A DNA stretch of 64,000 nucleotides from Escherichia phage vB_EcoS_AKFV33. Below, piece after piece: positions 829-33,351 of this stretch (its first letter is position 1; each line of letters starts with the position of its first letter). The translations under genes and the position numbers were made by a program. The DNA is taken from the sequence record NC_017969.1; one strand, 5' to 3'. A model generated the notes under the pieces. It saw nothing but the letters and a program-made list of their open reading frames with translations. It was not told the origin of the DNA and did no database searches.

Positions 829-1361
829 TAATAGGTAACCAATTCCTGTACAAATCGCAGGCTGTTATCACTGTTTGCGCCAGTTGCGTAAACTAAACGA
901 GTAGATTCATAGTTGTAATCTAGAATCGTATTATCCAGATGTACATCTGCCTCTAGTTTTTGATCACTAAAGATTGTGGATACGAAAGCACTTTCAATAT
1001 GACCATGAATATACATTTCGTACAGTAATGTTGCGCCACCTAAAACCACTGTCTGTTGATCTTTTAAGAATGTAGGCAATGTATCCCCAATCTTAGAAAT
1101 TGGAATGTAAATATCATGCGTAATATCGTCTGGCAGTGGACGATCAGCACGAATAAATAGATCAGAAGCCCCAATCATACGTTCCCTAACGGCGTATGGA
1201 AGAGCTAAATAAGTACCAGCACCAATGATGATGTTATCTGGATTCAACACGTCCAGTTGAGAATAGAAAGCATCTAGTTCTTCTTTGAAGGAACCCCATG
1301 GAAGTTTACCGTGGAGGCCGAACTCCCCATTCGGCCCAACTGCATACATTGCTGTAATCAT
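828..1361 (-). CDS. dihydrofolate reductase
   Basis: 177 aa; N-terminal GxxGxLPW-type motif ([11 protein letters not shown]); sits between thyA and nrdB as in T4/T5-type nucleotide metabolism clusters. Confidence 0.8.
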
Positions 1362-2503
1362 AAGAAATCTCCAAATTCATTACCCAGATCTTTCAGAGTA
1401 TCAGTAGAGGTTTCGGTGACTTGACCTACACGATATGCTGCACCAATCTGGATTTCTTGTGGAGCAGGCTGTAAAGAAGTGGTATCCAACCAGTTCATGA
1501 TCCACGGAATAGGGTTTTTGGTGATTACTGGTAAATGACTAGGCCATTCTACACCGATGTGCATAAATGCATTACGTCCCACAAAATACAGATATTCTTC
1601 TAGAAGTTCTGCATTTAAACCAATCAGACTACGACCTTTGAAAATGAAATGACCCCATTCAATTTCAGTTTTCAGAGTTTTCAGAAGCTGTGCGGGTGCT
1701 TTAGCCAATGCTTCATCCACCAGATCTTTGTCAAACTGCTGGAACATAATCTGGATGATTGCTTTAGACATCTGAGTGTGTAGAGCTTCATCTTTAGCGA
1801 TTAGTTGTAGGTTTTTAGCAATACCTTGCAGAATATCGTTCTCTGCTAATGCAAAGGTACATGCAAAGGATGCGTAAAACTGCATTGCTTCCAGACCGTA
1901 GATTGCAAAGTAAGCGTCTAATAGCTTAGCCTGAGTTTCACGTTTAACTTCAGGGAACTCAGTTTCTGGATACGTATTGTCGCCACGATGATCGCGTACT
2001 GCGATGAAATACTGACCTAACTGATATAGCTCATCAAATAGCTCAACAGAATCAGCGATGCGTGCGAATGCTTCCTGGTTTTTGGTTACAGAATCAATAA
2101 ATTCTGCTGGATCAGTCAGCACATTACGAATAATATTGCTATAAGCACGACTATGCAGATCTTCAAAATAGCTCCACTGCTTGAGCATACCTTCCAATTC
2201 TGGGCGACTTACAAGTGGCATAATAGCTGCTTCAGGGGCACGACTGATAAAGGAGTCAGTTTGAGTTTGCCATGCTAAGTTCAGGAGTGTAATTTCCTGA
2301 ATTTCACGCGGGAGATTACCCCACTGCTTTTTATCAGCTTCAAGACTAATTTCAGTTTCAGTCCAGAACTGGGAACGCTGCAACAGAGCTAATCGCTCTA
2401 GTTCGGGGTGTGCCACACGCACATAATCTGCGATACCCAAAGAATCACCTAGGAAAAGATCAGCGTTAGTATGGTCCCATTCTAAGTTAAGTAAAGTAGT
2501 CAT
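1358..2503 (-). CDS. nrdB: ribonucleotide reductase class Ia small subunit
   Basis: 381 aa; diiron-site-like KDEALH block; stop overlaps the DHFR start (ATGA). Confidence 0.88.
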   Translation of the reverse strand: MTTLLNLEWDHTNADLFLGDSLGIADYVRVAHPELERLALLQRSQFWTETEISLEADKKQWGNLPREIQEITLLNLAWQTQTDSFISRAPEAAIMPLVSRPELEGMLKQWSYFEDLHSRAYSNIIRNVLTDPAEFIDSVTKNQEAFARIADSVELFDELYQLGQYFIAVRDHRGDNTYPETEFPEVKRETQAKLLDAYFAIYGLEAMQFYASFACTFALAENDILQGIAKNLQLIAKDEALHTQMSKAIIQIMFQQFDKDLVDEALAKAPAQLLKTLKTEIEWGHFIFKGRSLIGLNAELLEEYLYFVGRNAFMHIGVEWPSHLPVITKNPIPWIMNWLDTTSLQPAPQEIQIGAAYRVGQVTETSTDTLKDLGNEFGDFL

Positions 2504-2997
2504 TTAGCTTCTCCGTTGTTTGCAAAGTCCCCATGAAGTTCTAGTAGTTTGATGTCTCTCCATTCTATAGCTTCTTCTAGGGTTTTAAAAGTTTTTGTGT
2601 AAGATTTGCCGTCTTTGCCTATCCTAACCTGAAATGAAGTGCCTTTTACACGAATATTTTTCATTCCAAGCTGGTTATCCGCTCTTGCACACGAGTTCAT
2701 AGAATTTTGAGAACTCGTGGCTTCACGGAGATTATCCCAGGCACAGTTGGACGGATTAGTATCTTTATGGTCGATTTTTCCTTCTGGTATTTCTCCAGTC
2801 ATATACAAGAAGGCTAGGCGATGAGCTAAATATTGAACTCCTTCAACTTTTATACGAAGATACCCTAATTTATCGTAGGTTCCTGCTTTAGCGTTCCATA
2901 AATGCTTTGCTAAAGTTTTTCTTGGGAGCCAGGTAAATTCGCCAGTTTCAGGGTCATAGGAGATTAGCTCTTTTAATCTACTCTGTGTTAATTTCAT
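2500..2997 (-). CDS. HNH homing endonuclease (free-standing)
   Basis: 165 aa; HKDTNPSNCAWDNLREAT block fits the HNH_3 motif; inserted between nrdB and nrdA; AGA/AGG/ATA-rich codon usage unlike its neighbours. Confidence 0.75.
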   Translation of the reverse strand: MKLTQSRLKELISYDPETGEFTWLPRKTLAKHLWNAKAGTYDKLGYLRIKVEGVQYLAHRLAFLYMTGEIPEGKIDHKDTNPSNCAWDNLREATSSQNSMNSCARADNQLGMKNIRVKGTSFQVRIGKDGKSYTKTFKTLEEAIEWRDIKLLELHGDFANNGEAK

Positions 2998-3078: not shown

Positions 3079-5409
3079 TTAAATAGTACAACCACCGGAT
3101 GCACAACCGGCTGCTTCTTCTCCAGCACCTCCACCATTTGCGGTATTGAAGTTAGCGTAATACCAAGTTTTCCACCCATACTTAACAGCAGTCATGAAAT
3201 CACGAACTACTACTGGGCCAGGAATGATTTCATTCTCAAACTTGGTGTAGTCATAGTACATATTCGTACTGATAGACTGACTGAAGAATTTCTGCATAGT
3301 TGCTACCCATTTGATCCACTCGATACGATCTACATCATAAGCCAGTTTATAGCTCATTAACGTTTCCCAATCGGTTGCACCTGGAGCAATTGCAATTACT
3401 TTATTTACTGCACTACCTTTAATAGATACAATCTTACGAGGCGGTTCGATAGAGTTAGTAACTCCTAGCAGAACAGAAGAACTTTCTCCTGGCATCTGAG
3501 CAGTCAGAACAGAGTTACGCATACCATATTTCAGAATATCTGCACGCAGAGACTCCCAATCCATTTCTAGACCTACGGATACCAGTTCATCAACAGTTTT
3601 CTTGTACGTGTCGATTACCAGAATTCCTTTAGATGGTTTAGTGCGATCAAACCACTCGCATGCACCCTGTTCTTTAGCTAGGCGTACAGAGGCTTTATGC
3701 AGGAAGTAAGACAGTTTTTCAGCCTCACGGTGAATCCAGTTACGGGCTTCAATACCTTCATAAGCCAGACCTTCTGCTGCCATTGCACCTGCTGCGTTCA
3801 TTAGTCCAATACCAACATTACGACGTTTCTTAGCCGTATATTCCATAGTTGGGAACGGATAATCCTGAATTTCAATAATTGTATCAACGAATTTCAGAAG
3901 GATGTAGCAAGTTTTTTCCCACTCAGCCAGAGATTCCATGCGCCCAAGTACAACACCACCTAAGTTACACAGAGATACTTCACCAATATCCTCCGGCTTC
4001 ATTTGATCAAGCTGCTCTTTTGTCTTATACAGCTCTGTGATATGATGGAACGGGCGTGTAGGCTGAGTAATTTCAACACAAAGGTTTGTCATACGGATCG
4101 GATCAAGGAAGTTACCGTGACGATTAGATTCCCCGATGTGATGAGCATACATACGTCCTGTTTCCATTCGGATACGTAGCCAAGTATCTAGGATTTCTTT
4201 TGCAGAGACTTTAGGAGCTGCAGGAACTGTTTTTCCTTCGTGGTCGATCTTTGTAAGAGATGCCACACGTTTCTCCGCTGCCACGTAGATTTCTTCAAAT
4301 TTAGCCTCGTCATCACTATAAAACGCTTCATGAACTTCTGGAGCATAGAAGTATGACATTAGCGTAATATCTTCGTTTTTAAGATAACGTTTTAACAAAA
4401 GATTGTTAAAGCTCAGAGAATAATCCATCTTATCGATTTTATTCTCATCTGTAGCACGTTGTTGCTTAACCTGCATCAATTGAATGATTTCAGGGTCGAA
4501 GTATGGATAAGACACTGTAGCAGAACCACCACGAGTTTGCTGAGTATTGGCCTTTACTGAGCGGTCAATGTGTCGATAATATGGTAGTTTTCCGGAATGC
4601 GGGAATGCCCCATTTCGCACCGGATCAGCAATTGATCGGCTTTCAAGATGATACCCGATTCCCGCTCTGGCTGCGACCATTTTGAAGACGATGTGCTCGG
4701 CGGTGTCGATTGAATCCAACGTGTCAGTGGAATCCACGAGGCAGCAACTAGCAAATCCACGGTCACTAGAGCGCAGACCAACCAGTGGCGGCGTAGGAAC
4801 GTTGATTTTGTGGAGTGACATTGCGTTGTAGAGGTCGATTGCATCTAGAATTGTCCAGTTAGGTTGAGATAACATCGCCATTGCCATACCCATGTAGGCA
4901 AACTGCGGAGTTTCATAAATTTCACCAGTGGCTATGTTACGACGGGAATACTTATCAAAGAACTGCTTCAGTCCACCACTAGTAAAAAGACGGTCACGAT
5001 CATGGTCGATAACCTGATTCAGAGCTTCAAATTGCTCATCGGTAATCCATGCACTCATGTCTTCCCATGCACCTACGCTAACCATGTGGTCATGGAAGAA
5101 GCGCAGAGAAGGCGGTTCGAAGGAATCATAAAGGCGTTTACGCATTTGCGCAAGACGTAATTCCTTTGCTGGCACATCATATGCTGGATTATCTTTAATA
5201 AGACTTTCAGCAGCTTTAATTAATGCATCCATCAGAGTGTCGGAATCTACAACCCCTTTAGGCAGAGTTTTTTGAGCAGCCATAGTAATGGCTGACCAAC
5301 TTACATCAACTGTTTTGCAACCATACTCTGCCCAACCATTTAGTTTTTCAGGAGCAAAGTCTTCTACAGTACCGTCACGTTTAATTACTTTTTCAATGCG
5401 ATGGCTCAT
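3079..5409 (-). CDS. nrdA: ribonucleotide reductase class Ia large subunit
   Basis: N-terminal ATP-cone-like segment (VIKRDGTVEDF), active-site NLCVEI block, C-terminal Cys pair (CASGGCTI). Start placed at ATG 5407-5409, which has an AAGGAAA Shine-Dalgarno; the track ORF extends upstream to 5514 without one. Confidence 0.9.
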   Translation of the reverse strand: MSHRIEKVIKRDGTVEDFAPEKLNGWAEYGCKTVDVSWSAITMAAQKTLPKGVVDSDTLMDALIKAAESLIKDNPAYDVPAKELRLAQMRKRLYDSFEPPSLRFFHDHMVSVGAWEDMSAWITDEQFEALNQVIDHDRDRLFTSGGLKQFFDKYSRRNIATGEIYETPQFAYMGMAMAMLSQPNWTILDAIDLYNAMSLHKINVPTPPLVGLRSSDRGFASCCLVDSTDTLDSIDTAEHIVFKMVAARAGIGYHLESRSIADPVRNGAFPHSGKLPYYRHIDRSVKANTQQTRGGSATVSYPYFDPEIIQLMQVKQQRATDENKIDKMDYSLSFNNLLLKRYLKNEDITLMSYFYAPEVHEAFYSDDEAKFEEIYVAAEKRVASLTKIDHEGKTVPAAPKVSAKEILDTWLRIRMETGRMYAHHIGESNRHGNFLDPIRMTNLCVEITQPTRPFHHITELYKTKEQLDQMKPEDIGEVSLCNLGGVVLGRMESLAEWEKTCYILLKFVDTIIEIQDYPFPTMEYTAKKRRNVGIGLMNAAGAMAAEGLAYEGIEARNWIHREAEKLSYFLHKASVRLAKEQGACEWFDRTKPSKGILVIDTYKKTVDELVSVGLEMDWESLRADILKYGMRNSVLTAQMPGESSSVLLGVTNSIEPPRKIVSIKGSAVNKVIAIAPGATDWETLMSYKLAYDVDRIEWIKWVATMQKFFSQSISTNMYYDYTKFENEIIPGPVVVRDFMTAVKYGWKTWYYANFNTANGGGAGEEAAGCASGGCTI

Positions 5410-5551
5410 TTGGCTTTCCTTTTTATAGTTATCAGGATTTAAGGAATATTCTACTTTATTATCGGTCATTAGGCAAATAAAATTTTCTGATAGAAAAGGC
5501 CCGAGTATTTTCATACCCAGGCCCTGTATATTACCAGTCTAGCTTTTTAGC

Positions 5552-5774: not shown

Positions 5775-6536
5775 TTACACCTTCCCCATGTCTTTAAAGA
5801 TGTCATAGAATGCTTTAGACTCAACAGAACGAACGTTATCAATCAATTCGATCATTGAGAATGGGGCATTTTCGTATTTCTCATAGACTTCCATAAGGAG
5901 TGCTAGACCTGAGTCACCTTTAATGTCTTTCTGAGCTATATCTCCGCAGATAATTAAACGGCAGTCTTGTCCTACACGAGTTAGAAGACAAATCATTGCC
6001 TCAACGGAAATATTCTGAGCTTCATCGACAATTACATAGGAGTTGTTGAAAGTTCTGCCACGAGCATGTTCGACAGCCAAAAATTTAATTTTCTGACGTT
6101 CGACATATCCCTTATAGGCATGATCGCCGATGGCCCATTTCATACCATCAGCTATTGGCTCCAACCAAGGCTCTAGCTTTTCTGCTAGATCACCAGGAAG
6201 CATACCAAGAGACTTACCTAGAGGTTCATTAGGACGTACGAGGATAACTTGCTCAATATCTGAGTGAATGTCTACGAGTTCCTGAGCTGCAAGAACGGAC
6301 GGAATAAAGGTTTTACCAGTACCTGGCTCACCGATACCCACAGTCACTGTGTTGTTCTTGATCATATTGATATATGATTTTTGCTCGCGGTTTTTACCTA
6401 CTAGGGATTTAGCAACTGGGTTAGCGTAATCATTAGAAAAATCAGCCTGAATTACGTTATTCTCATACTTGTTGCCACGCTTTCTTGAACCATTGCGGTT
6501 CTCTCTTTTTTGACGTGCTTTTCCCATAAATAACAC
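5775..6536 (-). CDS. phoH: PhoH-like ATPase
   Basis: 253 aa; Walker A GEPGTGKTF and Walker B-like VIVDEAQN; GGAG Shine-Dalgarno before the start. Confidence 0.85.
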   Translation of the reverse strand: MLFMGKARQKRENRNGSRKRGNKYENNVIQADFSNDYANPVAKSLVGKNREQKSYINMIKNNTVTVGIGEPGTGKTFIPSVLAAQELVDIHSDIEQVILVRPNEPLGKSLGMLPGDLAEKLEPWLEPIADGMKWAIGDHAYKGYVERQKIKFLAVEHARGRTFNNSYVIVDEAQNISVEAMICLLTRVGQDCRLIICGDIAQKDIKGDSGLALLMEVYEKYENAPFSMIELIDNVRSVESKAFYDIFKDMGKV

Positions 6537-6629: not shown

Positions 6630-6829
6630 CTACAATTTTAAATAAGCCTATGATATTGCATTTAAATAAAAAATTTGCTTGCTTTTAACGTGAGATGTGT
6701 GATACTAGATAATCATTTTATATCGCGTACACGAGTGCGTGATTATACAATCTTTAATAGAAATTGGCAAATAAAATTTTTTCAAAAATTGATTAAAGTC
6801 AAGTTATTTAAGAATGCTAAAAAATTTTA

Positions 6830-6858
6830 TTGACATAGTGGTATTTTTATATTATACT
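6830..6858 (+). promoter_or_regulatory. sigma70 promoter (TTGACA-17-TATACT)
   Basis: Consensus -35 and near-consensus -10 with 17 nt spacing, followed by an AGGAG Shine-Dalgarno and the ATG at 6882. Confidence 0.75.
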
Positions 6859-6881
6859 ATGTACTAAATAGGAGAAATAAA

Positions 6882-7550
6882 ATGCCAAAGAAATTGAGTA
6901 CGGAAGAAGTCAATAATAGACTTTTAGATAGAGGAATTGTCTTAGTTGGGGAGTATATAAATGCTAATACTAAGGCTAGTTTTAGATGTTCAGTGGGGCA
7001 TGTATGGGAAACAAAACCATCAGTGTTACTTAACATGGGATTTGGATGTCCATATTGCAGTGGGAAAGCTAAACTAACTCCTGAAGTAATAAACCAGGAA
7101 TTAAGTAATAAAGGAATACAAATAGTAGGCAAATATGTAAATAATAGAACTCCGACCCTTTTTAGGTGTGAAAATGGCCATGAGTGGAATACTACTATTA
7201 ATGCAGTGAAAAATTTAGACAGTAATTGCCCGATATGTAAAAAAGAAGGCAGGTCTAAAACAAAACTATATGTTATGTATAGTGAATCTTTAGGTACTAA
7301 GATTGGTATCTCTAATAAACCGGGAACTAGATTAGGAAAAATTAGCAGAAATGCTAATATACCAGATCTTAAATTATTTAAAGTATTTGATATCTTAGAT
7401 TATACTAAGTGCCGTAAAATTGAGAAAGCAGCACATGAGCATTTTAAAGAATGGAACTGCTATTATAAGGATTTTGATGGTGCTACAGAGTTTTTTGATA
7501 TTGAACCAGATACAGCAGTAAAATTTATTGAGGAAAATATTAATGACTGA
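6882..7550 (+). CDS. T5orf172-domain protein (GIY-YIG-like endonuclease candidate) with two N-terminal zinc-ribbon-like modules
   Basis: 222 aa; two tandem modules of the form GEYxN..TK..F.C..GH.W...CP.C, then a C-terminal TK(I/V)GIS...TEFF region resembling the T5orf172 domain; AT-rich rare-codon usage; paralog of 58536..59210. Confidence 0.7.
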   Translation: MPKKLSTEEVNNRLLDRGIVLVGEYINANTKASFRCSVGHVWETKPSVLLNMGFGCPYCSGKAKLTPEVINQELSNKGIQIVGKYVNNRTPTLFRCENGHEWNTTINAVKNLDSNCPICKKEGRSKTKLYVMYSESLGTKIGISNKPGTRLGKISRNANIPDLKLFKVFDILDYTKCRKIEKAAHEHFKEWNCYYKDFDGATEFFDIEPDTAVKFIEENIND

Positions 7551-9390
7551 AGCTGAATTATTCGATAATATCTATGGTATTACAGATGGCTTTGCAGACT
7601 CTACCCTAAAGCATAATAATGCTAATAAACCCTCTGAGCGTTTTCCTACTCAGCGGGATATGATTGCAGGTGAACTAAGTAAATTTTTAACCTTGCAAGA
7701 AATGCCCGTACAGATCAGGACAGCACACTCAATCGGAGATATTCATTTCCATGACTTGGATTATTCCCTTTTGGGCATGACTAACTGTTGTCTAGTAGCT
7801 CTGGAAGATATGCTAAAAAATGGTATGAAGGTTGGTAATGCTGAAATTAGCACTCCAAACTCTATCACTACTGCGGCGGCTATTACTGCTCAGATTATCA
7901 CTCAGGTTAGCTCCCATCAGTATGGTGGTACTTCTGTAGATCGCCTTGATGAAGTATTAGCCCCTTATGTTCGTAAATCCTATGACAAAAATCATGCGTT
8001 TGCAAAACGTTGGACTAAGGATGAAGCCAAAGCATCAGTAATGGCTACGGAGATGACTGAAAAAGAAGTCTATGACGCTTGTCAGGGTTTAGAATATGAA
8101 ATCAATACCATGTTCAACTCTAATGGTCAGAGTCCATTTATTACCTTTGGTTTTGGTCTAGGAACTTCCTGGGAAGCACGTCTAGTACAGAAAGCAGTAC
8201 TGAAAGTACGCATGGATGGTTTAGGTATCAATAAACGTACAGCTATCTTCCCGAAACTGGTATTTGTACTTCGCGATGGCGTAAATATGAAACCAGGAGA
8301 TGTTAATTATGACATCAAGAAGTTAGCTATGAAATGTACTGCTGAACGTATGTATCCAGATTATATCAGCTATGACAAGGTTGTAGAAGTTACTGGAGAC
8401 TATAAAGTTTCTATGGGCTGCCGTTCATTCCTAGCTGCTGCAGAAGATGGTGAAACTGCTGGCCGTAATAACTTAGGTGTTGTTTCTGTAAACTTGCCTA
8501 GAATTGCTATCGAAGCTGAAGGAAATATTGATCTATTCTTTGATTTGCTTGAGCTACGTGTGGATACAGCGTTAAAAGCATTGGAGTGGAGAGTTGATCG
8601 CTTAAAATACATCCAAGCTAAAGCTGCACCCATCCTCTATATGTCAGGAGCCTTTGGGTTACGCTTGGAGCCTGATGAATATGTATTCGATCATTTCTAT
8701 AACCGTGCTTCTGTATCTCTAGGGTATATTGGTTGCCATGAAATGCTACAGTTCATGTTCGGCAAAGATGTAGACACAATGTCAGAGACCTGCATCAAGT
8801 TTGTTCAGCGTGTATTGCAGTACATGCGAGATAGAGTCGATCAGAAGAAGGAAGAGACTAAGTTAGGTTATAGCCTGTATGCTACACCGTCAGAGTCCCT
8901 ATGTGATAGGTTTTGCCGTTTAGACCGTGAATATTTCCCAGAGCATGAAGATATTCTGTCTAAAGGATACTACACTAACTCGCACCACCTTGATGTAGAG
9001 CGTAAAGTTGCTCCTAACGTGAAATTTGATTATGAATCTAACTTTACGCCTATTGCTTCTGGTGGGTGCATTTCCTATGTAGAACTACCGGATATGAAAC
9101 GATTCCCAGATGCACTGGAATGGGTTATTAATTATGCTGCTAGTAAGGTTCATTACTTCGGTATTAATACCCCAGTGGATTCTTGTGGTAAATGTGGATT
9201 CTTAGGTGAAACAATAGCATCCGAAGATGGATTCAAGTGCCCTATCTGTGGTAATCATGACCCCGAAACTCTTGAAGTAACTCGTCGAGTTTGTGGGTAT
9301 CTTGGAAATCCAGGTGCTCGTCCGTTTAACCCAGGAAAACAACATGAGGTTATGGGCAGGGTGAAACATCAGGATATTCGAGCTAAGTAA
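7543..9390 (+). CDS. nrdD: anaerobic ribonucleoside-triphosphate reductase
   Basis: C-terminal glycyl-radical motif RVCGYLG preceded by a Cys zinc ribbon (CGKCGF...CPICG); start placed at ATG 7543 with a GAGGA Shine-Dalgarno (the track begins at TTG 7528). Confidence 0.9.
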   Translation: MTEAELFDNIYGITDGFADSTLKHNNANKPSERFPTQRDMIAGELSKFLTLQEMPVQIRTAHSIGDIHFHDLDYSLLGMTNCCLVALEDMLKNGMKVGNAEISTPNSITTAAAITAQIITQVSSHQYGGTSVDRLDEVLAPYVRKSYDKNHAFAKRWTKDEAKASVMATEMTEKEVYDACQGLEYEINTMFNSNGQSPFITFGFGLGTSWEARLVQKAVLKVRMDGLGINKRTAIFPKLVFVLRDGVNMKPGDVNYDIKKLAMKCTAERMYPDYISYDKVVEVTGDYKVSMGCRSFLAAAEDGETAGRNNLGVVSVNLPRIAIEAEGNIDLFFDLLELRVDTALKALEWRVDRLKYIQAKAAPILYMSGAFGLRLEPDEYVFDHFYNRASVSLGYIGCHEMLQFMFGKDVDTMSETCIKFVQRVLQYMRDRVDQKKEETKLGYSLYATPSESLCDRFCRLDREYFPEHEDILSKGYYTNSHHLDVERKVAPNVKFDYESNFTPIASGGCISYVELPDMKRFPDALEWVINYAASKVHYFGINTPVDSCGKCGFLGETIASEDGFKCPICGNHDPETLEVTRRVCGYLGNPGARPFNPGKQHEVMGRVKHQDIRAK

Positions 9391-9397
9391 GCTAATC

Positions 9398-9430
9398 AGC
9401 CGGGTTGCTAGTCGACCTGGCTTTTATTTT
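9398..9430 (+). terminator. rho-independent terminator after nrdD
   Basis: AGCCGGGT / ACCTGGCT stem (one G-U pair) followed by a T-rich run. Confidence 0.55.
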
Positions 9431-9432
9431 AT

Positions 9433-9461
9433 TTGCTTTCAGCCAAAAATTTATATATAAT
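9433..9461 (+). promoter_or_regulatory. T5-type early promoter (TTGCTT-17-TATAAT)
   Basis: Exact -10 consensus with 17 nt spacing, then the conserved leader AGATTTATAAATTTGAGGAGG shared by the other promoters of this family. Confidence 0.8.
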
Positions 9462-9490
9462 AGATTTATAAATTTGAGGAGGTAGGAATT

Positions 9491-9871
9491 ATGACTTTAA
9501 AACCGTATATAGTGGAGTCTACGTGTGGCAGTTTCCACCTGGGTGTGGATGATATTGCTGAGGCTGTCTTTGCTGCCACAGGTGATTACTCTCATATAGG
9601 GGGTGCTGGGTACCCCACCGTTATTGGCGATTGGGTGGAAACAAATCTAGATGTGTCGCCTTATAACCCGTATTGCTTGTTTGATGAAGACAGAGATGAG
9701 GTAAAGTGTAATCTTGAATTTGTGTATAATAGAGTATTAAAAGTATACCAACGTAGTCCCGAGGGGTACGAAGATATTACTTGTAGTATTAAACAGTATC
9801 TTAAAGATGTATACTCTAGTTTTTCTGACGAAGGCCTAGAAACAGTTGCAGTGGAGTTTAATAATGACTAA
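9491..9871 (+). CDS. hypothetical protein
   Basis: 126 aa; first gene after the promoter; no CxxxCxxC radical-SAM motif, so not an NrdG activase. Confidence 0.5.
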   Translation: MTLKPYIVESTCGSFHLGVDDIAEAVFAATGDYSHIGGAGYPTVIGDWVETNLDVSPYNPYCLFDEDRDEVKCNLEFVYNRVLKVYQRSPEGYEDITCSIKQYLKDVYSSFSDEGLETVAVEFNND

Positions 9872-10070
9872 GAATGTGAAACACCTTAAATATCGCTTAA
9901 TCTATAACGGACGTATGGAAACAGAAGATCTGGCCCAATTAGCTATTAATTCTAATGAGGTTATGGTGCGTGCGCTAGCAATTGAAAAGTTGCGTGCTTC
10001 TTATGAAAATCATGTTATGGAACTAGAGGAGAAACTGTATGGACTTCTTGAATCAGAGTCTAAAAAGTAA
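9864..10070 (+). CDS. hypothetical protein
   Basis: 68 aa from ATG 9864 with a GGAG Shine-Dalgarno; overlaps the upstream stop. Confidence 0.45.
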   Translation: MTKNVKHLKYRLIYNGRMETEDLAQLAINSNEVMVRALAIEKLRASYENHVMELEEKLYGLLESESKK

Positions 10071-10233
10071 TCCAGAAAACATGCTTATTGAGCAATGGAA
10101 CTTTGGTTATAATGCCGGTATAGCTACTTGTATTGCTAGATTGGATATGCTTATTAAGCAAGAAAAGGTACGCCCGGAGGAAGCAATTTTACTCCGAAAT
10201 ATTATCGAAGGATTTAAGCAAGGAATCGTATAG
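10039..10233 (+). CDS. hypothetical protein
   Basis: 64 aa; GAGGAG Shine-Dalgarno 7 nt upstream. Confidence 0.45.
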   Translation: MDFLNQSLKSNPENMLIEQWNFGYNAGIATCIARLDMLIKQEKVRPEEAILLRNIIEGFKQGIV

Positions 10234-11051
10234 TGCGTAGATTAATTATTATTAGCGGTGCAGGTTTGAGTGTTGAAAGTGGTGTACGAGCTTTTCGTAC
10301 TGATACTGCTAGTGGTAAAGCACTGTGGGATGATTATGATCTAGAAGAAGTATGTAATATTCATGCCTTTCGTGGTAATTTTTATCATAAAACCCATATG
10401 TTTTACAACAAGCGTCGTGAAGAGCTAAAAACTGTTGAACCCAATCTTGCACACTTGCGTATTGGTGAATGGTATAAACAATATCCAGGTCAAGTAGTAA
10501 ACTTGACTACCAACGTTGATGACCTTATTGAGCGTGCTGGCGTTCCACATAGTGACATTCTGCACATTCACGGATATTTAAAAGAGGTTGTTGTAGCTGA
10601 TAGCTACAATAGTAGCAATAAACGGATTATTGATGTAGGGTATAATTCTATTGATCCAGATGATTATAAATGGGTTAAACCTAATGTTATCTTCTTTGGT
10701 GAGGTTGCTCCTGCCTATAAAACAATGTATGAGGTTTTTGATGGTATCACCAGTCATGATATGATCATCATTGTTGGGTGCTCTAACCAAGTAATTAACT
10801 TCTACTGGGAGCTATTTCCTATTCTGAATCTTACTGCTGCAAAACTTATGGTAGTTAACTATTACGATAGTGCAGTAGCTATGGAACCAGGCTATCAGGG
10901 CATGACTCGTAGTGAAATGTATCAGTTAGAAGAACGTGGTATTCCTTACTGGAGTAAAGGTGCTGTGGATGCCTTTAGTGATCCCGATTTTATTGCTCGT
11001 GTGGAAGCTCATCTAGAAGGTAAACCCTATGTCCAACAAAAGCATGTGTGA
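10233..11051 (+). CDS. sirtuin-like (Sir2 family) protein lacking the zinc-ribbon module
   Basis: 272 aa; GTG start overlapping the upstream stop; sirtuin blocks in order: GAGLSVESGVRAFR, TTNVDDLIERAG, HIHGYL (catalytic His), PNVIFFGE, IIIVGCS; no Cys cluster where canonical sirtuins bind zinc. Confidence 0.7.
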   Translation: MRRLIIISGAGLSVESGVRAFRTDTASGKALWDDYDLEEVCNIHAFRGNFYHKTHMFYNKRREELKTVEPNLAHLRIGEWYKQYPGQVVNLTTNVDDLIERAGVPHSDILHIHGYLKEVVVADSYNSSNKRIIDVGYNSIDPDDYKWVKPNVIFFGEVAPAYKTMYEVFDGITSHDMIIIVGCSNQVINFYWELFPILNLTAAKLMVVNYYDSAVAMEPGYQGMTRSEMYQLEERGIPYWSKGAVDAFSDPDFIARVEAHLEGKPYVQQKHV

Positions 11052-11211: not shown

Positions 11212-11377
11212 GGGTATCTGGAAAGGTCTAGTATGGTTTGTCAACCTAATCGGTATGATTACCATTTATTCTCTGTTCCTATCTGTTATGTGGGGTAAAG
11301 GTGAATTGAAGGTTCCAGTTCCTTTTACTGATGAAGTTAAAGTCTGGACGTGGGATGCTACTGGTGGAAATAAGTAA
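11192..11377 (+). CDS. small membrane protein
   Basis: 61 aa from ATG 11192 with an AAGGAGGG Shine-Dalgarno; one hydrophobic helix (WFVNLIGMITIYSLFLSVMW). Confidence 0.5.
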   Translation: MVKKIFKGIWKGLVWFVNLIGMITIYSLFLSVMWGKGELKVPVPFTDEVKVWTWDATGGNK

Positions 11378-11870
11378 TACTCCTGTGATTTTCCTGGATA
11401 TTGATGGGGTGCTCAATTCGAGCATCTCCCACCATCATGCACCTGATGATGAAAAGATTTTCTTTGGGAGTGACTGGGTTTTCAAACCGCTTCTCAAGGC
11501 TTTTCAAGATTTTATTCGTCCTTCCTCGATAATGATTGTTGGGGTATCCTCATGGTTCTCTGTCAGGAATGAGATGGAGAACGTTCAGATTATGACCGGA
11601 TTAGGTCTTATCGATCGTTTTCTTGGTACAACGGATTTTACTGGTGGTGGATTATCTAGGGGTAATTCTGTTCTTCGCTTCGTTGAAAAGCATAAGCTCA
11701 AACATTGGTGTGTACTGGATGACGCTGGTGCTATGATGTATCAGTATCCAACGGTTATAGTCAATGGTAGAACTGGAATAAATCTTCAAGATTTAAAAGC
11801 TGTTAGCTATATGCTAGAATTTAGCCCAGATCTTGAAATGTGTAAATCCTTACAACAATTTAAGGTGTAA
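11331..11870 (+). CDS. HAD-superfamily-like hydrolase (phosphatase candidate)
   Basis: FLDIDGVLN near the N-terminus fits HAD motif I (DxDG); true start uncertain (ATG 11331, ATG 11355 or a later GTG). Confidence 0.45.
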   Translation: MKLKSGRGMLLVEISNTPVIFLDIDGVLNSSISHHHAPDDEKIFFGSDWVFKPLLKAFQDFIRPSSIMIVGVSSWFSVRNEMENVQIMTGLGLIDRFLGTTDFTGGGLSRGNSVLRFVEKHKLKHWCVLDDAGAMMYQYPTVIVNGRTGINLQDLKAVSYMLEFSPDLEMCKSLQQFKV

Positions 11871-11872
11871 AT

Positions 11873-12301
11873 ATGTTCAATAATGTATTCTCTAAAGAAG
11901 CTAACCCAATTTTGGTTAACTTTTGGCGTACTCTCCCAGCTAGCCTGTATAATGAGGCTATTAACTCTTTGAAAATATGGTGTGAGAATAACGAAATCTC
12001 CTTTGCTTTTAAAGATGATATTGATGAGGCTCCCTGTATTGGTTTAATTGTGCAGGTAGAGGAGGGTCTTGAAGAGATTGTGGGCTGGAAAGAGTTAGAC
12101 GAAATGGGCTTAGTTTTTGCGTTAAATTATAAACTGTTTATGCCTGCTAAGCATCGCCTTGTTGTTAACTATAAAACTAGTGAATCTCCTGGTTTTCAGG
12201 TTAATGAACGTTATGGTTGGTCTTACTCACCGGAAGAAGTAAATGAGGGGATTCAGAAACTTCGACGTTTCGGGTATATGATCCCGGGTTTAACTGCTTA
12301 A
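11873..12301 (+). CDS. hypothetical protein (tandem paralog A)
   Basis: 142 aa; shares PCIG, W.E...L..ALN..LF.P and Y.PGL blocks with the next ORF. Confidence 0.5.
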   Translation: MFNNVFSKEANPILVNFWRTLPASLYNEAINSLKIWCENNEISFAFKDDIDEAPCIGLIVQVEEGLEEIVGWKELDEMGLVFALNYKLFMPAKHRLVVNYKTSESPGFQVNERYGWSYSPEEVNEGIQKLRRFGYMIPGLTA

Positions 12302-12310
12302 GGAGGCAGG

Positions 12311-12703
12311 ATGGAACAAGTATATTGGCGTCAGATTGACCCTAGTTTGGTGAAACGTGCGGAGAAGCTGCTACAACGTTGGTTGGGGGTAAGGCAAGCC
12401 TCCTTCTCTTTTCCGGAGCAGCAAACGGATGATCCATGCATTGGCGTTTTCCTGTCTGGATATGCCGGGGAATGGGAGATGGATTGGAATGAATTGTCCG
12501 CTATGAGTTTAATTGTTGCCCTAAATTTCTCTTTGTTCCATCCACGTGGTTTGGCCATATGTCGTGTGCCTGATGACGGTTGTTCGCCCCATCTTTTACA
12601 GGTGGAAGATGATATTTGGGAGTACACTCCAGATATTCTCAAAGAAGCTAAAGAACAATTAAACCGTGTTGGGATTTATGTTCCAGGCCTAAATGATGAA
12701 TGA
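12311..12703 (+). CDS. hypothetical protein (tandem paralog B)
   Basis: 130 aa; paralog of 11873..12301; AGGAGG Shine-Dalgarno. Confidence 0.5.
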   Translation: MEQVYWRQIDPSLVKRAEKLLQRWLGVRQASFSFPEQQTDDPCIGVFLSGYAGEWEMDWNELSAMSLIVALNFSLFHPRGLAICRVPDDGCSPHLLQVEDDIWEYTPDILKEAKEQLNRVGIYVPGLNDE

Positions 12704-12794
12704 TTTTTATTAGCTGAAATTTGTAATCCGGGCTATTAGTGCTCGGATTATTACATAATCTTTCCAGTCGATTGACAGTCAAAATAAATTGTCG

Positions 12795-12825
12795 TTGACA
12801 ATTTGGATGGATTATGTAATAATAT
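12795..12825 (+). promoter_or_regulatory. sigma70 promoter for the HNH gene
   Basis: TTGACA at 12795-12800, about 17 nt spacer, TAATAT-type -10; flanked by TTGAC-containing inverted repeats. Confidence 0.55.
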
Positions 12826-12842
12826 ATGTATTGGAGGTGAGG

Positions 12843-13295
12843 ATGTCATTCACACAGCAAGAACTTTTAGATAACTTCCGATATGAAGATGGTAAGTTAT
12901 TTAGAACTACAGGAAGAAATGCAGGGAAAGAATGTTGTGTTTCTACGGGTAACGGATATTATCGTATATCTCTAGGGAATAGGACTATGCTTCGGCATAG
13001 AGCAATATTTTTAATGCATCATGGATACTTACCTGATTTAGTAGATCATGTGAATACTATAAAAGGTGATGATCGTATTGAAAATCTTAGAGAGCAGACA
13101 GTGTCCGGTAATCTAAGAAATATCAAATATAAGAAAGGAATGCATGTTTACCCTTCTGGTAGTAAGAACTGGCAAGTAGTATTTACTATTAACCGTAAAC
13201 GTATAGTTAAAGGAACATATGACAACTATGAGGTTGCATGTTCTATGGCCAAGATGTTTAGAGGTCAATTATACGGTAGGGAATCAATCCAGTAA
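12843..13295 (+). CDS. HNH homing endonuclease (free-standing)
   Basis: HHGYLPDLVDHVNTIKGDDRIENLREQT fits the HNH_3 motif; start placed at ATG 12843 with a GGAGGTGAGG Shine-Dalgarno; AGA/AGG/ATA-rich codons. Confidence 0.75.
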   Translation: MSFTQQELLDNFRYEDGKLFRTTGRNAGKECCVSTGNGYYRISLGNRTMLRHRAIFLMHHGYLPDLVDHVNTIKGDDRIENLREQTVSGNLRNIKYKKGMHVYPSGSKNWQVVFTINRKRIVKGTYDNYEVACSMAKMFRGQLYGRESIQ

Positions 13296-21932: not shown

Positions 21933-23405
21933 ATGACCTTGTTTAACGTGCAAGCTGTAGTGTTGAAGATGCTTCTAGCTTCCGAACAGAAGCAAATAGC
22001 ATTGGAAACATTCTCAAAACTGCATAAAGATCATTTTAATGACGCTTTCTCCTCAATTTACCAAGCCGTCCAGAATTATTATAAAAAATATAACACAATG
22101 CCGTCCATTGACGCACTTATGCTTGAAGCTAATAGGAACGCCCGCCTTTCTCAAGCTCTAGTCGTCTTAGCTAACACTCAAATTCCAGAAGTGAGCATGG
22201 AACAGGCACTTGAAGTCCTAGAGGCTGAATATACACAGGATTTATTCCTGAAGCTTCTAGAAACAGACGTGCTTCAAGATTTAACAATGCTGGATCAGGG
22301 AGAAATTCTCAACCGAGTTGCCTCCCTTCACTTAAAATTAGAAGAGAAAGTAACGAATACTGGAAAAGTATTCAACGCAGATAACATGCGTATTTTCCAG
22401 AGAGAAGAAGATACCAAACTGAACTTAATCGCTCTTGGTATTTGTAATGAGTTCGACGCTCAAATTGGTTTAGCTCGCACAGAAACGTTACTGCTTGGTG
22501 GTTGGCGTGGTACTGGTAAATCCATTATCTGTTCAAACATACAGGTTCAGCAATATTTGAATGGAGATATTGCTCCATACTTCTCAATTGAGATGAAAGA
22601 ACATGAAGTATTTAGACGTAATCTAGCCATGTTAGCCGGGGTATCAGCACTAGCAATGCGTAATAATACTCTAGAAGGTGCAGCTCTATTGAGATTAGCC
22701 AGAACTAGAGCTAGAATGTTTAATGGGGGTGAAGAGCTTTTTGATAACTTCGTTAAACAGTACACAATGGCTAAGATGAGTGATTTCTACGATATGGAGA
22801 GTAAGCTAATAGAGGGATATGAACTACATACTCCTATGATTATCGTTTATGACCCTGAACTGTCCATTACAACAGTTGACGTAGAATTAAATAAATTAGT
22901 TGCTAGATATGGTGATAAAGTTACAGTAGCTTTACTGGACTATATTAACCAAACCCGACTTCCAGATTCTAAAACCATTGATATGTATGACTGGAAAGAA
23001 CAGATGGTTGTTAGCTCGTCTTTCAAATCTATCTGCCAGAAACATAACGTGGCTGGTGTAGCTCCTTACCAGATCGATCAAGATGGTAGAACACGTATGT
23101 CAAAGGGTATTCTTGATTCCGCAGACATGGCTGCTAATCTTAATGCTGCAAAAGCTGATAATGGTCAAGGTGCTATTATGTTTGACTTCGTTAAGACTCG
23201 TTCTTCTGATAGCGTGAAGTTTATGCCTAAAATGAACTGGGAAACCTTGCGGATGGATAACACTACCAACCTAGCGATGGAAGATATATCTCAAATGGAA
23301 GCTGAGTTCGTTATCCCTATTGAGAAGGATAAGCCGGCTCAACCTAAACGTGCTAAGAAAGACAAAACCGAAAATTCAACAGGTGAACAGGCCAGCGATA
23401 TATGA
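21933..23405 (+). CDS. replicative DNA helicase (DnaB-like)
   Basis: Walker A GGWRGTGKS in the C-terminal half; directly upstream of the primase with overlapping stop and start; start uncertain (track begins at 21882 inside the terminator). Confidence 0.6.
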   Translation: MTLFNVQAVVLKMLLASEQKQIALETFSKLHKDHFNDAFSSIYQAVQNYYKKYNTMPSIDALMLEANRNARLSQALVVLANTQIPEVSMEQALEVLEAEYTQDLFLKLLETDVLQDLTMLDQGEILNRVASLHLKLEEKVTNTGKVFNADNMRIFQREEDTKLNLIALGICNEFDAQIGLARTETLLLGGWRGTGKSIICSNIQVQQYLNGDIAPYFSIEMKEHEVFRRNLAMLAGVSALAMRNNTLEGAALLRLARTRARMFNGGEELFDNFVKQYTMAKMSDFYDMESKLIEGYELHTPMIIVYDPELSITTVDVELNKLVARYGDKVTVALLDYINQTRLPDSKTIDMYDWKEQMVVSSSFKSICQKHNVAGVAPYQIDQDGRTRMSKGILDSADMAANLNAAKADNGQGAIMFDFVKTRSSDSVKFMPKMNWETLRMDNTTNLAMEDISQMEAEFVIPIEKDKPAQPKRAKKDKTENSTGEQASDI

Positions 23406-31046: not shown

Positions 31047-32865
31047 GACACTAAAATTTAGTAACGTTATGTCTTACGGTAAGGACATCGTAATCCATTT
31101 CGATAAGAATCCAGTTACTCAACTAATTGGGGGCAATGGGCTAGGGAAATCCACCATTGCTACTGTTATTGAAGAACTCTTTTATAATAAGAACTCACGC
31201 GGTATTAAGAAAGATGCTCTGTTCTCTTGGTCTTCCCCGAAAAAAGAGTATGATATGCACGCTTACTTCTCGAAAGATGAAGATGAGTACGAACTGCATA
31301 AAGTAGTTAAATCAACTGCTAAAGTAACTCTTATTAAGAATGGAGAAGATATTAGTGGACACACGGCAACTCAAACATACAAGATGATTGAAGAGATTAT
31401 GGGTGGTGACTTCCAAACATTCACCAAACTGATTTATCAATCAGTGGGTTCCAATCTAGACTTTCTAAAAGCAACAGATGCAACACGTAAGGCTTTTCTT
31501 GTTAACTTGTTCAATCAAGAACAGTATAAAGAAATGTCAGAAACTATTAAGGCTGACCGTAAAGAAATAGCAAATACCTTAAATAATTTGCAGGGCCAAA
31601 TGGCTGTAATTACGAAAATCCTTAATGGAAAGAATAATCTGGGAACTTTGCAGGAACCTGTAGAAGTACCAGAGTTTGATGAAGAGCCATTAGCACAAGA
31701 ACTTACTGAATCGAAAATTAAGGCGGCATTAGCCAAGTCTCAAGAGGCTAATATTACTAAATTGCGTAATTTGGACAAAGCTGTACAAGTTGCCGAACAA
31801 TCTTTCGAGCCTTTCAAAAATTTACCCGCGCCCACTGACCAAAATGAAGAGATCTCGAGTGTTACGCGTGACCTAACGATTGTGACCTCACGTGCGAGCG
31901 AAGTTAAGAAACGTTATCAGAAGTTCAAGCAAGAGGCTTCAAATACTGAATGTCCTACCTGTGGTACTCATCTGGATACAACTGCTGCGCAAAAAGCAAT
32001 GGATATGGCTAGAACAGAATATGATCCTCTGTTCAAAGAGAAGCAATCTCTTGAAGCTAAGCTAGAACAGTTGAAGAAAGAACAACTTGAGTACGTTGCA
32101 TATACTAGAGCAAAGGATGCTTTGGATAAGGCAGTAGCAGCTAGAGACGAGTTCAAAAATTCAATGAGTGATGCTTCTTTTGAAGAACTCAATGTGCAAA
32201 TCCTACAGGTGCAAATCCGACAATTAGAACAGGAAATAGCTGATGGACGTTCTAAGGTTGCAATTGCTAAAGAACATAATGCAAATGTTGAGTTAGCCAA
32301 TGCAAAATATAAGGCGAAACTAGAACAGATTGAGAAAGCTGAGGCAGAAATGTCTGAGATTACTTCCAAACTGGATGGAGTATCAGAAGCTGTTGCTGAT
32401 CTCGATATTCTGATTGCTGCATTAAAGAATCTAGTAGGATATAAGCTAGAGCATAGTGTGAAAGTATTTGAAGAACTAATTAATAAATACCTTTCCATTA
32501 TGACTGGTGGTAAGTTCGCACTTGGATTTGAGCTTGATGAAACAAAATTACAAGTAGTAATCTTCAATGATGGAAATCGTACCAGTATGGAGAACTGCTC
32601 TACTGGTCAACAGAGTAGAATTAACCTAGCAACCCTGTTAGCTATTCGGATGCTGTTAACATCTATTAGTAAAGTTAATATTAATCTTCTATTCCTTGAT
32701 GAAGTAATTAGCTTTATTGATACAAAAGGACTTGATACTCTTGTTGAATTATTAAATGAGGAAGAAAGTCTAAATTCTATCATTGTTTCTCATGGGCATA
32801 CGCATCCACTAGCTCATAAGATTACTGTCAAAAAAGATGCAGAAGGATTTTCCTACTTAGAATAA
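31027..32865 (+). CDS. SbcC/Rad50-like ATPase
   Basis: N-terminal Walker A GGNGLGKST, long central coiled coil, C-terminal Walker B LLFLDEV; start placed at ATG 31027 (track begins at 30946, overlapping sbcD). Confidence 0.85.
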   Translation: MSKITIKTLKFSNVMSYGKDIVIHFDKNPVTQLIGGNGLGKSTIATVIEELFYNKNSRGIKKDALFSWSSPKKEYDMHAYFSKDEDEYELHKVVKSTAKVTLIKNGEDISGHTATQTYKMIEEIMGGDFQTFTKLIYQSVGSNLDFLKATDATRKAFLVNLFNQEQYKEMSETIKADRKEIANTLNNLQGQMAVITKILNGKNNLGTLQEPVEVPEFDEEPLAQELTESKIKAALAKSQEANITKLRNLDKAVQVAEQSFEPFKNLPAPTDQNEEISSVTRDLTIVTSRASEVKKRYQKFKQEASNTECPTCGTHLDTTAAQKAMDMARTEYDPLFKEKQSLEAKLEQLKKEQLEYVAYTRAKDALDKAVAARDEFKNSMSDASFEELNVQILQVQIRQLEQEIADGRSKVAIAKEHNANVELANAKYKAKLEQIEKAEAEMSEITSKLDGVSEAVADLDILIAALKNLVGYKLEHSVKVFEELINKYLSIMTGGKFALGFELDETKLQVVIFNDGNRTSMENCSTGQQSRINLATLLAIRMLLTSISKVNINLLFLDEVISFIDTKGLDTLVELLNEEESLNSIIVSHGHTHPLAHKITVKKDAEGFSYLE

Positions 32866-32868
32866 AAC

Positions 32869-33351
32869 ATGGCTGTAGATAGTAGAGAGAAAGGTAAACG
32901 CGGTGAATATCAGGTAAGAGATATTCTACGTGAGCGTACAGGTCTTGAGTGGGAACGTGTTCCTGGCTCTGGTGCTTTTGGCCAGAGCCATGGACTGAAG
33001 GGTGACATCTACCTTCCACCACAAAGTGGACACATTAGTAAATACTGCTTCGAAGTTAAGTGGTATAAAGATGATAATATATCAAGTAATTTATTTAATG
33101 TTGGTGAATCCACTCTAGAGAAGTGGTGGCAGCAGTGCTCACGTGAAGGTGAGCAGATGAACTCAAAACCTGCATTAATATTCAAGAAAGACAGAGGACA
33201 GTGGTTAATAGCTTTGGATAGCTCAGACCCGATGGTTGACAACTTAATGAGTCGTACCCATATGGTGTTAAATAAGAAAGACATGGAAATCGTAATTGGT
33301 TTATTTGAGCCGTGGCTACATCATGCATCTGTTGAGGACTTAATTAAATAA
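32869..33351 (+). CDS. putative nuclease (possible PD-(D/E)xK fold)
   Basis: 160 aa; GDIYL ... FEVK spacing suggests a restriction-endonuclease-like motif; sits between sbcC and the flap endonuclease. Confidence 0.35.
   Translation: MAVDSREKGKRGEYQVRDILRERTGLEWERVPGSGAFGQSHGLKGDIYLPPQSGHISKYCFEVKWYKDDNISSNLFNVGESTLEKWWQQCSREGEQMNSKPALIFKKDRGQWLIALDSSDPMVDNLMSRTHMVLNKKDMEIVIGLFEPWLHHASVEDLIK

Follow-up and report, generated by a model that had tools for sequence, protein, structure and literature searches.

An anaerobic ribonucleotide reductase gene without a phage-encoded activase gene in a T5-like phage: probable activation by host NrdG

Phages that encode NrdD, the catalytic subunit of class III (anaerobic) ribonucleotide reductase (RNR), but not its radical-SAM activase NrdG have been described before. 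RNRdb contained 30 phage NrdD versus 21 phage NrdG proteins in 2009 (PMC2795772), and the nrdD-only pattern has been published with T5 explicitly named (Dwivedi et al. 2013, PMC3653736). The same study reported for T5, SPC35, and EPS7 that phoH separates the class I from the class III RNR genes. The nrdD-only gene pattern is thus already known and, because it has long been documented, the finding of nrdD without nrdG adds nothing new by itself. In T5, nrdB, nrdA, and phoH are encoded on one strand and nrdD, ORF094, and Sir2 on the other, without nrdG. Phage T4 differs in that its own activase is encoded directly downstream, in an nrdD-mobC-nrdG operon, and in E. coli NrdD (b4238) is likewise co-encoded with NrdG (b4237). 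In one precedent, a glycyl-radical protein encoded by a phage depends on a host activase: Y06I of T4, a spare-part glycyl-radical protein like its E. coli counterpart YfiD (GrcA), is activated by the host PFL-AE (PMC8683613). However, in this case the partner enzyme is PFL and the activase is PflA, rather than NrdD and NrdG.

The window analyzed here, i.e., the whole stretch of about 64 kb, belongs to the genome of about 110 kb of a T5-like phage (Demerecviridae), and its best matches in the phage collection had nucleotide identities of about 95-97%. Both subunits of the class Ia RNR are encoded on the minus strand, the small subunit by nrdB (1358..2503; Pfam Ribonuc_red_sm, 9.6e-36) and the large subunit by nrdA (3079..5514; Pfam Ribonuc_red_lgC, 1.5e-119). 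A gene for a phoH-like ATPase (5775..6536, minus strand; Pfam PhoH, 3.6e-61) lies between the class I and the class III RNR genes. The latter are represented by nrdD on the plus strand (ATG at 7543, stop at 9390), which encodes the 615-aa catalytic subunit of a class III ribonucleoside-triphosphate reductase. The presence of nrdA, nrdB, and nrdD, the lack of nrdG, and the position of phoH reproduce the published nrdD-only pattern (PMC3653736). The gene order was the same as in T5, and the T5 NrdD protein (AY587007, 53880..55754) was 95% identical to that of the window, which has a different N-terminus.

The initial annotation had ascribed a glycyl-radical motif and a zinc ribbon to nrdD, and both features were confirmed. 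The protein matched the Pfam family NRDD (PF13597) in full length (E 1.7e-171, profile positions 2-562 of 562) as well as Gly_radical (E 1.2e-22), and the Pfam search gave no match to an N-terminal ATP-cone. Among the protein structures, it matched 9d3x (E 2.5e-189) and T4 NrdD (1h78, E 3.5e-176). Like the phage protein, T4 NrdD has no ATP-cone; the two are about 49% identical and have the catalytic residues and the zinc ribbon in common. E. coli NrdD is 54% identical over its residues 110-705, but it contains about 100 additional N-terminal amino acids that are absent from the phage protein. Pairwise mapping onto the T4 numbering placed Cys293 (codon 8419..8421, plus strand, as are all nrdD features) at the thiyl-radical Cys290, Cys82 (7786..7788) at C79, and Asn310 (8470..8472) at N311. 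The C-terminal zinc ribbon CgkC...CpiC (9184..9249), with Cys548, Cys551, Cys566, and Cys569, was aligned to C543, C546, C561, and C564 of T4. The glycyl-radical motif RVCGY (9286..9300) was aligned to T4 G580, the counterpart of Gly585 (codon 9295..9297), and to the RVCGY of E. coli; it was the sole match to R[VT][SC]G[YW] in all six frames of the window.

Because no activase is encoded, nrdD might be viewed as a remnant that is non-functional or diverted to another function, and whose product is never converted to a radical enzyme. This is very unlikely, as none of the catalytic residues is missing and both the zinc ribbon and the glycine are conserved. In addition, the dN/dS values for nrdD were 0.028 in comparison to EH7 and 0.095 in comparison to T5; such low values (0.03-0.10) argue for strong purifying selection and thus for a functional gene. 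Moreover, more than 500 Demerecviridae records have retained nrdD, and three diverged alleles occur in the same slot.

To find an activase gene, the window was searched by tblastn with three NrdGs and with an HMM built from three NrdG sequences. The best E-value for NrdG in the window was about 3, while the positive controls yielded values from 1e-33 to 1e-108. Also, no radical-SAM gene was found in the window. The six-frame translation of the window contained one CxxxCxxC (CX3CX2C) motif, in a frame of 103 codons (38386..38694, plus strand). This frame is not a gene, because it lies antisense to a minus-strand ORF of 784 aa (37222..39576) in the tail-gene region, so that the earlier claim that the motif is missing from the ORFs of the window stands. 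The spacings CX2CX2C, CX4CX2C, CX5CX2C, and CX2CX4C, and any three close cysteines, occurred in the window in short or antisense frames, with the exception of one triplet in PhoH, which is non-Fe-S-like. No Fe-S cluster motif was seen in the ORFs of the window.

About 46 kb of the genome, comprising the pre-early region and the early/tRNA region, lie beyond the window, and the initial annotation had considered that the activase may be encoded elsewhere in the genome. Therefore, relatives were checked instead, namely EH7 and T5, which have nucleotide identities of about 97% and 93%, respectively, over the region of the finding. Six-frame searches of both complete genomes did not reveal any NrdG homologue, and the best E-values across the window and the two genomes were about 0.4-3. 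The CX3CX2C motif was confined in EH7 and T5 to ORFs of about 90-104 aa without a radical-SAM Pfam match (T5 ORF053 and EH7 32650..32922), or to unannotated or antisense frames. T5 ORF053 and its EH7 equivalent, which contain CICSCWMC and adjoin a GrcA-like gene, are proteins of about 100 aa without Pfam domains, which match a PHROG without assigned function; they were rejected as activases because they are too small for a radical-SAM barrel. A 90-aa ORF of EH7 with the sequence CHWECPTC was rejected as a zinc-ribbon-like small protein (weak match to DUF7695). In addition, a 93-aa ORF after nrdD in EH7 was considered as an nrdG relic, as its stretch KDKWLWIDYE resembles KDIWLWTGYK of NrdG, but the similarity was too weak (22 residues, 8.3 bits, E 0.43 over 4599 segments).

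The results for further phages were in agreement. No NrdG was found within 3 kb on either side of nrdD in the Demerecviridae PM135, GZ8, and phC11; in the NrdG-encoding comparison phages, nrdG was located within about 2.6 kb downstream of nrdD in five out of five cases. Throughout the phage collection, records with NrdD outnumbered those with NrdG by 273 (Salmonella), 126 (Escherichia), 81 (Klebsiella), and 4 (Shigella), and the numbers of T5-like records were 271-295, 128-138, 80-82, and 4, respectively. These are aggregate record counts by host genus, not counts per genome, and their match points to a lack of NrdG in the whole T5-like family. T5 is also found among the nrdD-only phages in published surveys (PMC3653736). 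Taken together, these results did not bear out an activase gene elsewhere in the phage genome, which we regard as extremely improbable. A complete class III system with nrdD and nrdG, as in T4, was found neither in the window nor in EH7 or T5. The gene content is best explained by a phage that possesses nrdAB for a class Ia (aerobic) RNR and nrdD for the catalytic subunit of a class III (anaerobic) RNR, but does not encode the radical-SAM activase NrdG.

The ORF after nrdD was analyzed as a further candidate. An intrinsic-terminator-like hairpin with a T-run was detected by a scan 8 nt past the nrdD stop (9398..9431, plus strand; 10-bp stem with 6 GC pairs), and in T5 a terminator is annotated at the equivalent position relative to nrdD. 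The promoter-like sequence TTGCTT-17 nt-TATAAT (9433..9461, plus strand) was read from the sequence and is the positional counterpart of the annotated T5 early promoter T5P31; downstream of it, the ribosome binding site GAGGAGG is present (9476..9482, plus strand). A consensus promoter scan did not yield 9433..9461, because its -35 hexamer matches the consensus at just three of six positions. From this putative promoter, the following ORF of 126 aa (9491..9871, plus strand) would be transcribed as a separate unit. It encodes an acidic protein (pI 4.2) that is the equivalent of T5 ORF094 and has no assigned function (phrog_11748, E 7.8e-75). As initially annotated, it contains four scattered cysteines only (positions 12, 62, 73, and 98). 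Cys12 alone was invariant among 14 homologues, and the other three were substituted. Searches for Radical_SAM or NrdG homology in this ORF gave neither a Pfam match nor a match to the NrdG HMM, but solely phrog_11748, and the CX3CX2C [4Fe-4S]/SAM motif was absent. Based on the scattered cysteines with one invariant position, the lack of NrdG homology, and the putative terminator and promoter upstream, the ORF was rejected as an activase. Its homologues formed 24 clusters, in which the long contigs (62-121 kb) were without exception T5-like, as was every name given by the source; it is a T5-family ORFan. In EH7, its slot is occupied by the unrelated 93-aa ORF mentioned above. A structure prediction with AlphaFold2, based on a 14-sequence alignment, was unusable (mean pLDDT 57.9; about 36-37 for the other four models).

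Next, the glycyl-radical loop was compared, defined as residues 672-705 of E. coli NrdD (34 residues). The loop of E. coli is nearly identical to that of the phage protein (VTRRVCGYLGxPxARPFNxGKQ). The identity to E. coli was 73.5% for the NrdD of the window, whereas the loop of T4 was less host-like (52.9%). For five NrdG-less Demerecviridae NrdDs, including alleles that are just about 60-72% identical to that of the window, the identity to the host loop was 70.6-76.5%, in contrast to 52.9-64.7% for six enterobacterial phages that carry NrdG, in a comparison of 34 residues from phylogenetically non-independent sequences. When the divergence of the loop was related to that of the core, NrdG-encoding phages of the rV5-like and phAPEC8-like types overlapped with the NrdG-less group. 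The host-like loop in NrdG-less phages is a small and suggestive addition to the known pattern.

Because nrdD is intact and the phage has no activase gene, borrowing of host NrdG, the other option of the initial annotation, is the most likely solution. The gene nrdG was found in every complete E. coli genome (5426 of 5426). This ubiquity, the purifying selection on nrdD, the host-like loop, and the precedent of T4 Y06I make activation by pre-existing host NrdG the best explanation, and we consider it to be probable on the basis of these sequence comparisons. Alternatively, NrdD could be activated by a factor other than NrdG, either another host activase, e.g., PflA, or an unrecognized non-homologous phage protein. 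Such a factor is conceivable since T5 and EH7 encode a second glycyl-radical protein, a GrcA-like homologue of Y06I/YfiD (its gene lies outside of the window), which should use PflA and is not accompanied by a phage PflA; in addition, no function is known for many of the early ORFs. However, the phage NrdD loop matches the loop of host NrdD and contains RVCGY, versus RVSGY in the phage GrcA-like protein, and according to RNRdb, NrdG is the activase specific for NrdD (PMC2795772). Furthermore, Fe-S cluster motifs were lacking in the ORFs of the window, and the 126-aa ORF has a single invariant cysteine and is probably transcribed separately. Altogether, a non-NrdG activator seems unlikely. Still less likely is the specific version that host NrdG is not used at all and NrdD is matured via a recruited PFL activase, or via a small early phage protein that adapts a host radical-SAM enzyme; if true, this would be a new way to activate a class III RNR.

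Activation by host NrdG would fit the physiology of infection. The host nrdDG operon is induced by FNR, and therefore an enterobacterial host that grows anaerobically, e.g., in the gut, would already contain NrdG at the time of infection. T5 shuts the host down early and degrades the host genome, so that activation would plausibly depend on NrdG made before infection. This pre-existing pool should suffice, because the activase is needed for installation of the radical only, and not for turnover. We infer that freshly synthesized phage NrdD would receive its radical at Gly585 from host NrdG, in a reaction that uses SAM and reduced flavodoxin. Since it has no ATP-cone, the phage NrdD would presumably escape feedback inhibition by dATP and could thus provide dNTPs rapidly for the synthesis of phage DNA. 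A literature search on nrdD and nrdG of T5 and Demerecviridae, and on NrdD/NrdG cross-reactivity, did not find an experimental test of the activation of a T5-type NrdD by host NrdG. If host NrdG is obligatory, T5-like phages in the gut and other anaerobic niches would have nrdG as a host-dependency factor, which could bear on phage therapy and on host-range work that is done aerobically only. In that case, the phages would encode just the catalytic subunit, which is dose-limiting and oxygen-labile, and the host would provide the maturase.

One further difference from the arrangement in T5, SPC35, and EPS7 is an additional T5orf172-type endonuclease ORF directly upstream of nrdD (6882..7550, plus strand), which shares 8 nt with the start of nrdD. 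This homing-endonuclease-like ORF combines a DUF4379 treble-clef zinc finger (Pfam, 4e-11) with a T5orf172 domain (2e-08). It was found in few relatives only, and most T5-like genomes matched from query position 815 onward (window position 7614). The endonuclease ORF is an optional insertion and lies outside of the RNR system.

The nrdD gene of the window (ATG at 7543 to stop at 9390, plus strand) encodes a 615-aa protein that covers the entire Pfam NRDD profile (E 1.7e-171), matches Gly_radical (1.2e-22), and matches solved NrdD structures (9d3x, E 2.5e-189; T4 1h78, E 3.5e-176). Its identity with residues 110-705 of E. coli NrdD is 54%; the N-terminal segment of about 100 residues of the host enzyme is missing, and no ATP-cone domain was detected with Pfam. 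The initial annotation had reported a glycyl-radical motif and a zinc ribbon, and mapping to T4 numbering verified both: the glycyl radical residue G580 of T4 corresponds to G585, and the zinc-ribbon residues C543/C546/C561/C564 correspond to C548/C551/C566/C569. Residues C79, C290, and N311 of T4 are likewise kept, as C82, C293, and N310. The dN/dS values of nrdD were 0.095 versus T5 and 0.028 versus EH7, i.e. the gene is under strong purifying selection. Furthermore, nrdD is kept across the T5-like family, where it occurs as at least three alleles sharing only about 60-72% identity with that of the window. Purifying selection and family-wide retention together imply that NrdD must function. 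The nrdD gene of the Salmonella phage phC11, a Tequintavirus (locus L012, 3001..4827), occupies the identical genomic slot and has only 59.5% identity with that of the window, which points to allelic replacement within Tequintavirus.

The activase NrdG was searched for in the window with tblastn (word size 2, E up to 100), using NrdG of E. coli, T4, and the Vibrio phage VMJ710 as queries. The best E value in the window was about 3, and a profile made from the three proteins had no match there, whereas the identical queries recovered the T4 and VMJ710 genes with E values of 1e-33 to 1e-108. A six-frame scan found CxxxCxxC only once, in a 103-codon frame (38386..38694, plus strand), which was rejected as a gene because a 784-aa ORF of the tail-gene region lies on the opposite strand; the claim that no ORF in the window carries this motif was thus upheld. 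Relaxed cluster motifs, or any three close cysteines, were confined to short or antisense frames in the six-frame translation of the window; the exception is PhoH, the cysteine triplet of which is not Fe-S-like.

The 126-aa ORF that follows nrdD (9491..9871, plus strand) corresponds to T5 ORF094 and falls into phrog_11748, a family of unknown function. Its cysteines are indeed four and scattered, as noted initially, at positions 12, 62, 73, and 98. Homologues formed only 24 clusters among 5.8 billion proteins, and all long contigs (62-121 kb) as well as every source-given name among them were T5-like. Among 14 aligned members, C12 alone was invariant (C62 is replaced by Y, C73 by H/Y/N/P, and C98 by W/K/E), and therefore the protein cannot bind an Fe-S cluster. 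With a pI of 4.2 it is acidic, and its predicted structure (pLDDT 57.9) was of too low quality for use. An intrinsic-terminator-like hairpin (9398..9431) lies directly 3' of nrdD, and the ORF is preceded by a promoter-like TTGCTT-17-TATAAT and a GAGGAGG ribosome-binding site; hairpin and promoter-like site correspond to an annotated terminator and the promoter T5P31 of T5. With these elements in between, nrdD and the ORF are probably not co-transcribed. The slot itself is a swap cassette, occupied by the phrog_11748 ORF in the window and T5 and by an unrelated 93-aa ORF (phrog_7953; 22691..22972 of the EH7 sequence L001) in EH7. The resemblance of the latter to NrdG (KDKWLWIDYE versus KDIWLWTGYK, 8.3 bits, E 0.43) was too weak for an nrdG relic.

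Alternatively, the activase might be encoded elsewhere in the genome, as the initial annotation had considered, because about 46 kb (the pre-early and the early/tRNA region) are outside the window. Megablast with 6800..10300 and two 25-kb blocks matched several hundred T5-like phages, all Demerecviridae (Tequintavirus and Epseptimavirus); the best matches in the phage collection were EH7, NBEco002, and Kenya-K20, with about 95-97% identity, and none of the records was identical to the window. According to the alignment with EH7 and T5, the window extends from the dihydrofolate reductase/nrdB region across the replication genes as far as those for tail, head, and terminase. The same searches in the complete EH7 and T5 genomes did not find NrdG (best E about 0.4-1). 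The three CX3CX2C occurrences examined there, which lie in small annotated ORFs or in frames without annotation, are incompatible with a radical-SAM enzyme: T5 ORF053 and the equivalent ORF of EH7 carry CICSCWMC in a protein of about 100 aa, lack a Pfam domain, and belong to a PHROG of unknown function, a 90-aa EH7 ORF is zinc-ribbon-like, and a T5 frame is antisense to annotated genes. In the more distant Demerecviridae Proteus PM135, Klebsiella GZ8, and Salmonella phC11, which retain the synteny nrdA-phoH / nrdD-small ORFs-(Sir2)-obp, NrdG was absent within 3 kb of nrdD; in all five NrdG-encoding comparison phages (RB69, phiKp_5, FL04, JES2013, and DE16), it lies within about 2.6 kb 3' of nrdD. 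The phage collection contained an NrdD homologue in 2910 records and an NrdG homologue in 2273. Compared as aggregate totals rather than genome by genome, the NrdD excess by genus (Salmonella 273, Escherichia 126, Klebsiella 81, Shigella 4) parallels the T5-like records defined by nucleotide similarity (271-295, 128-138, 80-82, and 4, respectively). An activase elsewhere in the phage genome is thus very unlikely. Aeromonas phage records also contained more NrdD (108) than NrdG (53), consistent with a second, independent nrdD-only phage group reported previously (PMC3653736).

The initial observation of an nrdD without a recognisable nrdG is therefore correct, and this feature of T5-like phages has been documented before. 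T5 has the same arrangement as the window, many phages carry only nrdD together with nrdAB, and T5, SPC35, and EPS7 have been named as phages in which phoH separates the class I from the class III genes (Dwivedi et al. 2013, PMC3653736). RNRdb listed 30 phage NrdD versus 21 NrdG in 2009 and describes NrdG as the specific activase required by class III RNR (PMC2795772).

Reliance on host NrdG, the first interpretation offered initially, is the best-supported explanation and probably applies. The phage NrdD would remain a substrate of host NrdG, which would activate the phage enzyme; all 5426 complete E. coli genomes contained nrdG. If NrdG-less enzymes have to stay host-NrdG substrates, a host-like stretch at the positions aligned to E. 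coli NrdD 672-705 is expected. Over these 34 positions of related sequences, five NrdG-less Demerecviridae NrdDs (consensus VTRRVCGYLG(S/N)PG(A/S)RPFNxGKQxEV..RVKH) had 70.6-76.5% host identity, with 53-55% in their core, and six enterobacterial phages that encode NrdG themselves had 52.9-64.7%. In T4 and RB69 the stretch was less conserved than the core, and after normalization to the core the rV5-like and phAPEC8-like phages overlapped the NrdG-less group. The host-like stretch is thus only suggestive of host NrdG use. The lack of an ATP-cone suggests that carrying nrdD could provide a feedback-insensitive, high-dose catalytic subunit. An experimental test of host-NrdG dependence was not found in the literature.

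A precedent for a host activase acting on a phage glycyl-radical protein is T4 Y06I, which is activated by host PFL-AE (PMC8683613). Outside the window, T5 (L007, 27577..27945) and EH7 (L005, 28709..29077) encode a GrcA/YfiD-like autonomous glycyl-radical protein of 122 aa (RVSGY; Pfam Gly_radical 3.6e-18), and neither genome encodes the PFL activase PflA. This second glycyl-radical protein must rely on an activase supplied by the host.

Three homing-endonuclease-like ORFs are grouped around the RNR genes of the window: an HNH_3 ORF between nrdB and nrdA (2500..2997, minus strand), a DUF4379/T5orf172 ORF that shares 8 nt with the start of nrdD (6882..7550, plus strand), and a second HNH_3 ORF further downstream of nrdD (12789..13295, plus strand). 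The T5orf172 ORF was found in only a few relatives and accompanies an NrdD N-terminus unlike that of T5. Also located 3' of nrdD are a Sir2-family gene (10233..11051), a gene (11331..11870) with HAD_SAK_2, which is the HAD domain that 'Swiss Army Knife' RNA repair proteins carry, and two tandem DUF7415 paralogues (11873..12301 and 12311..12703), all on the plus strand.
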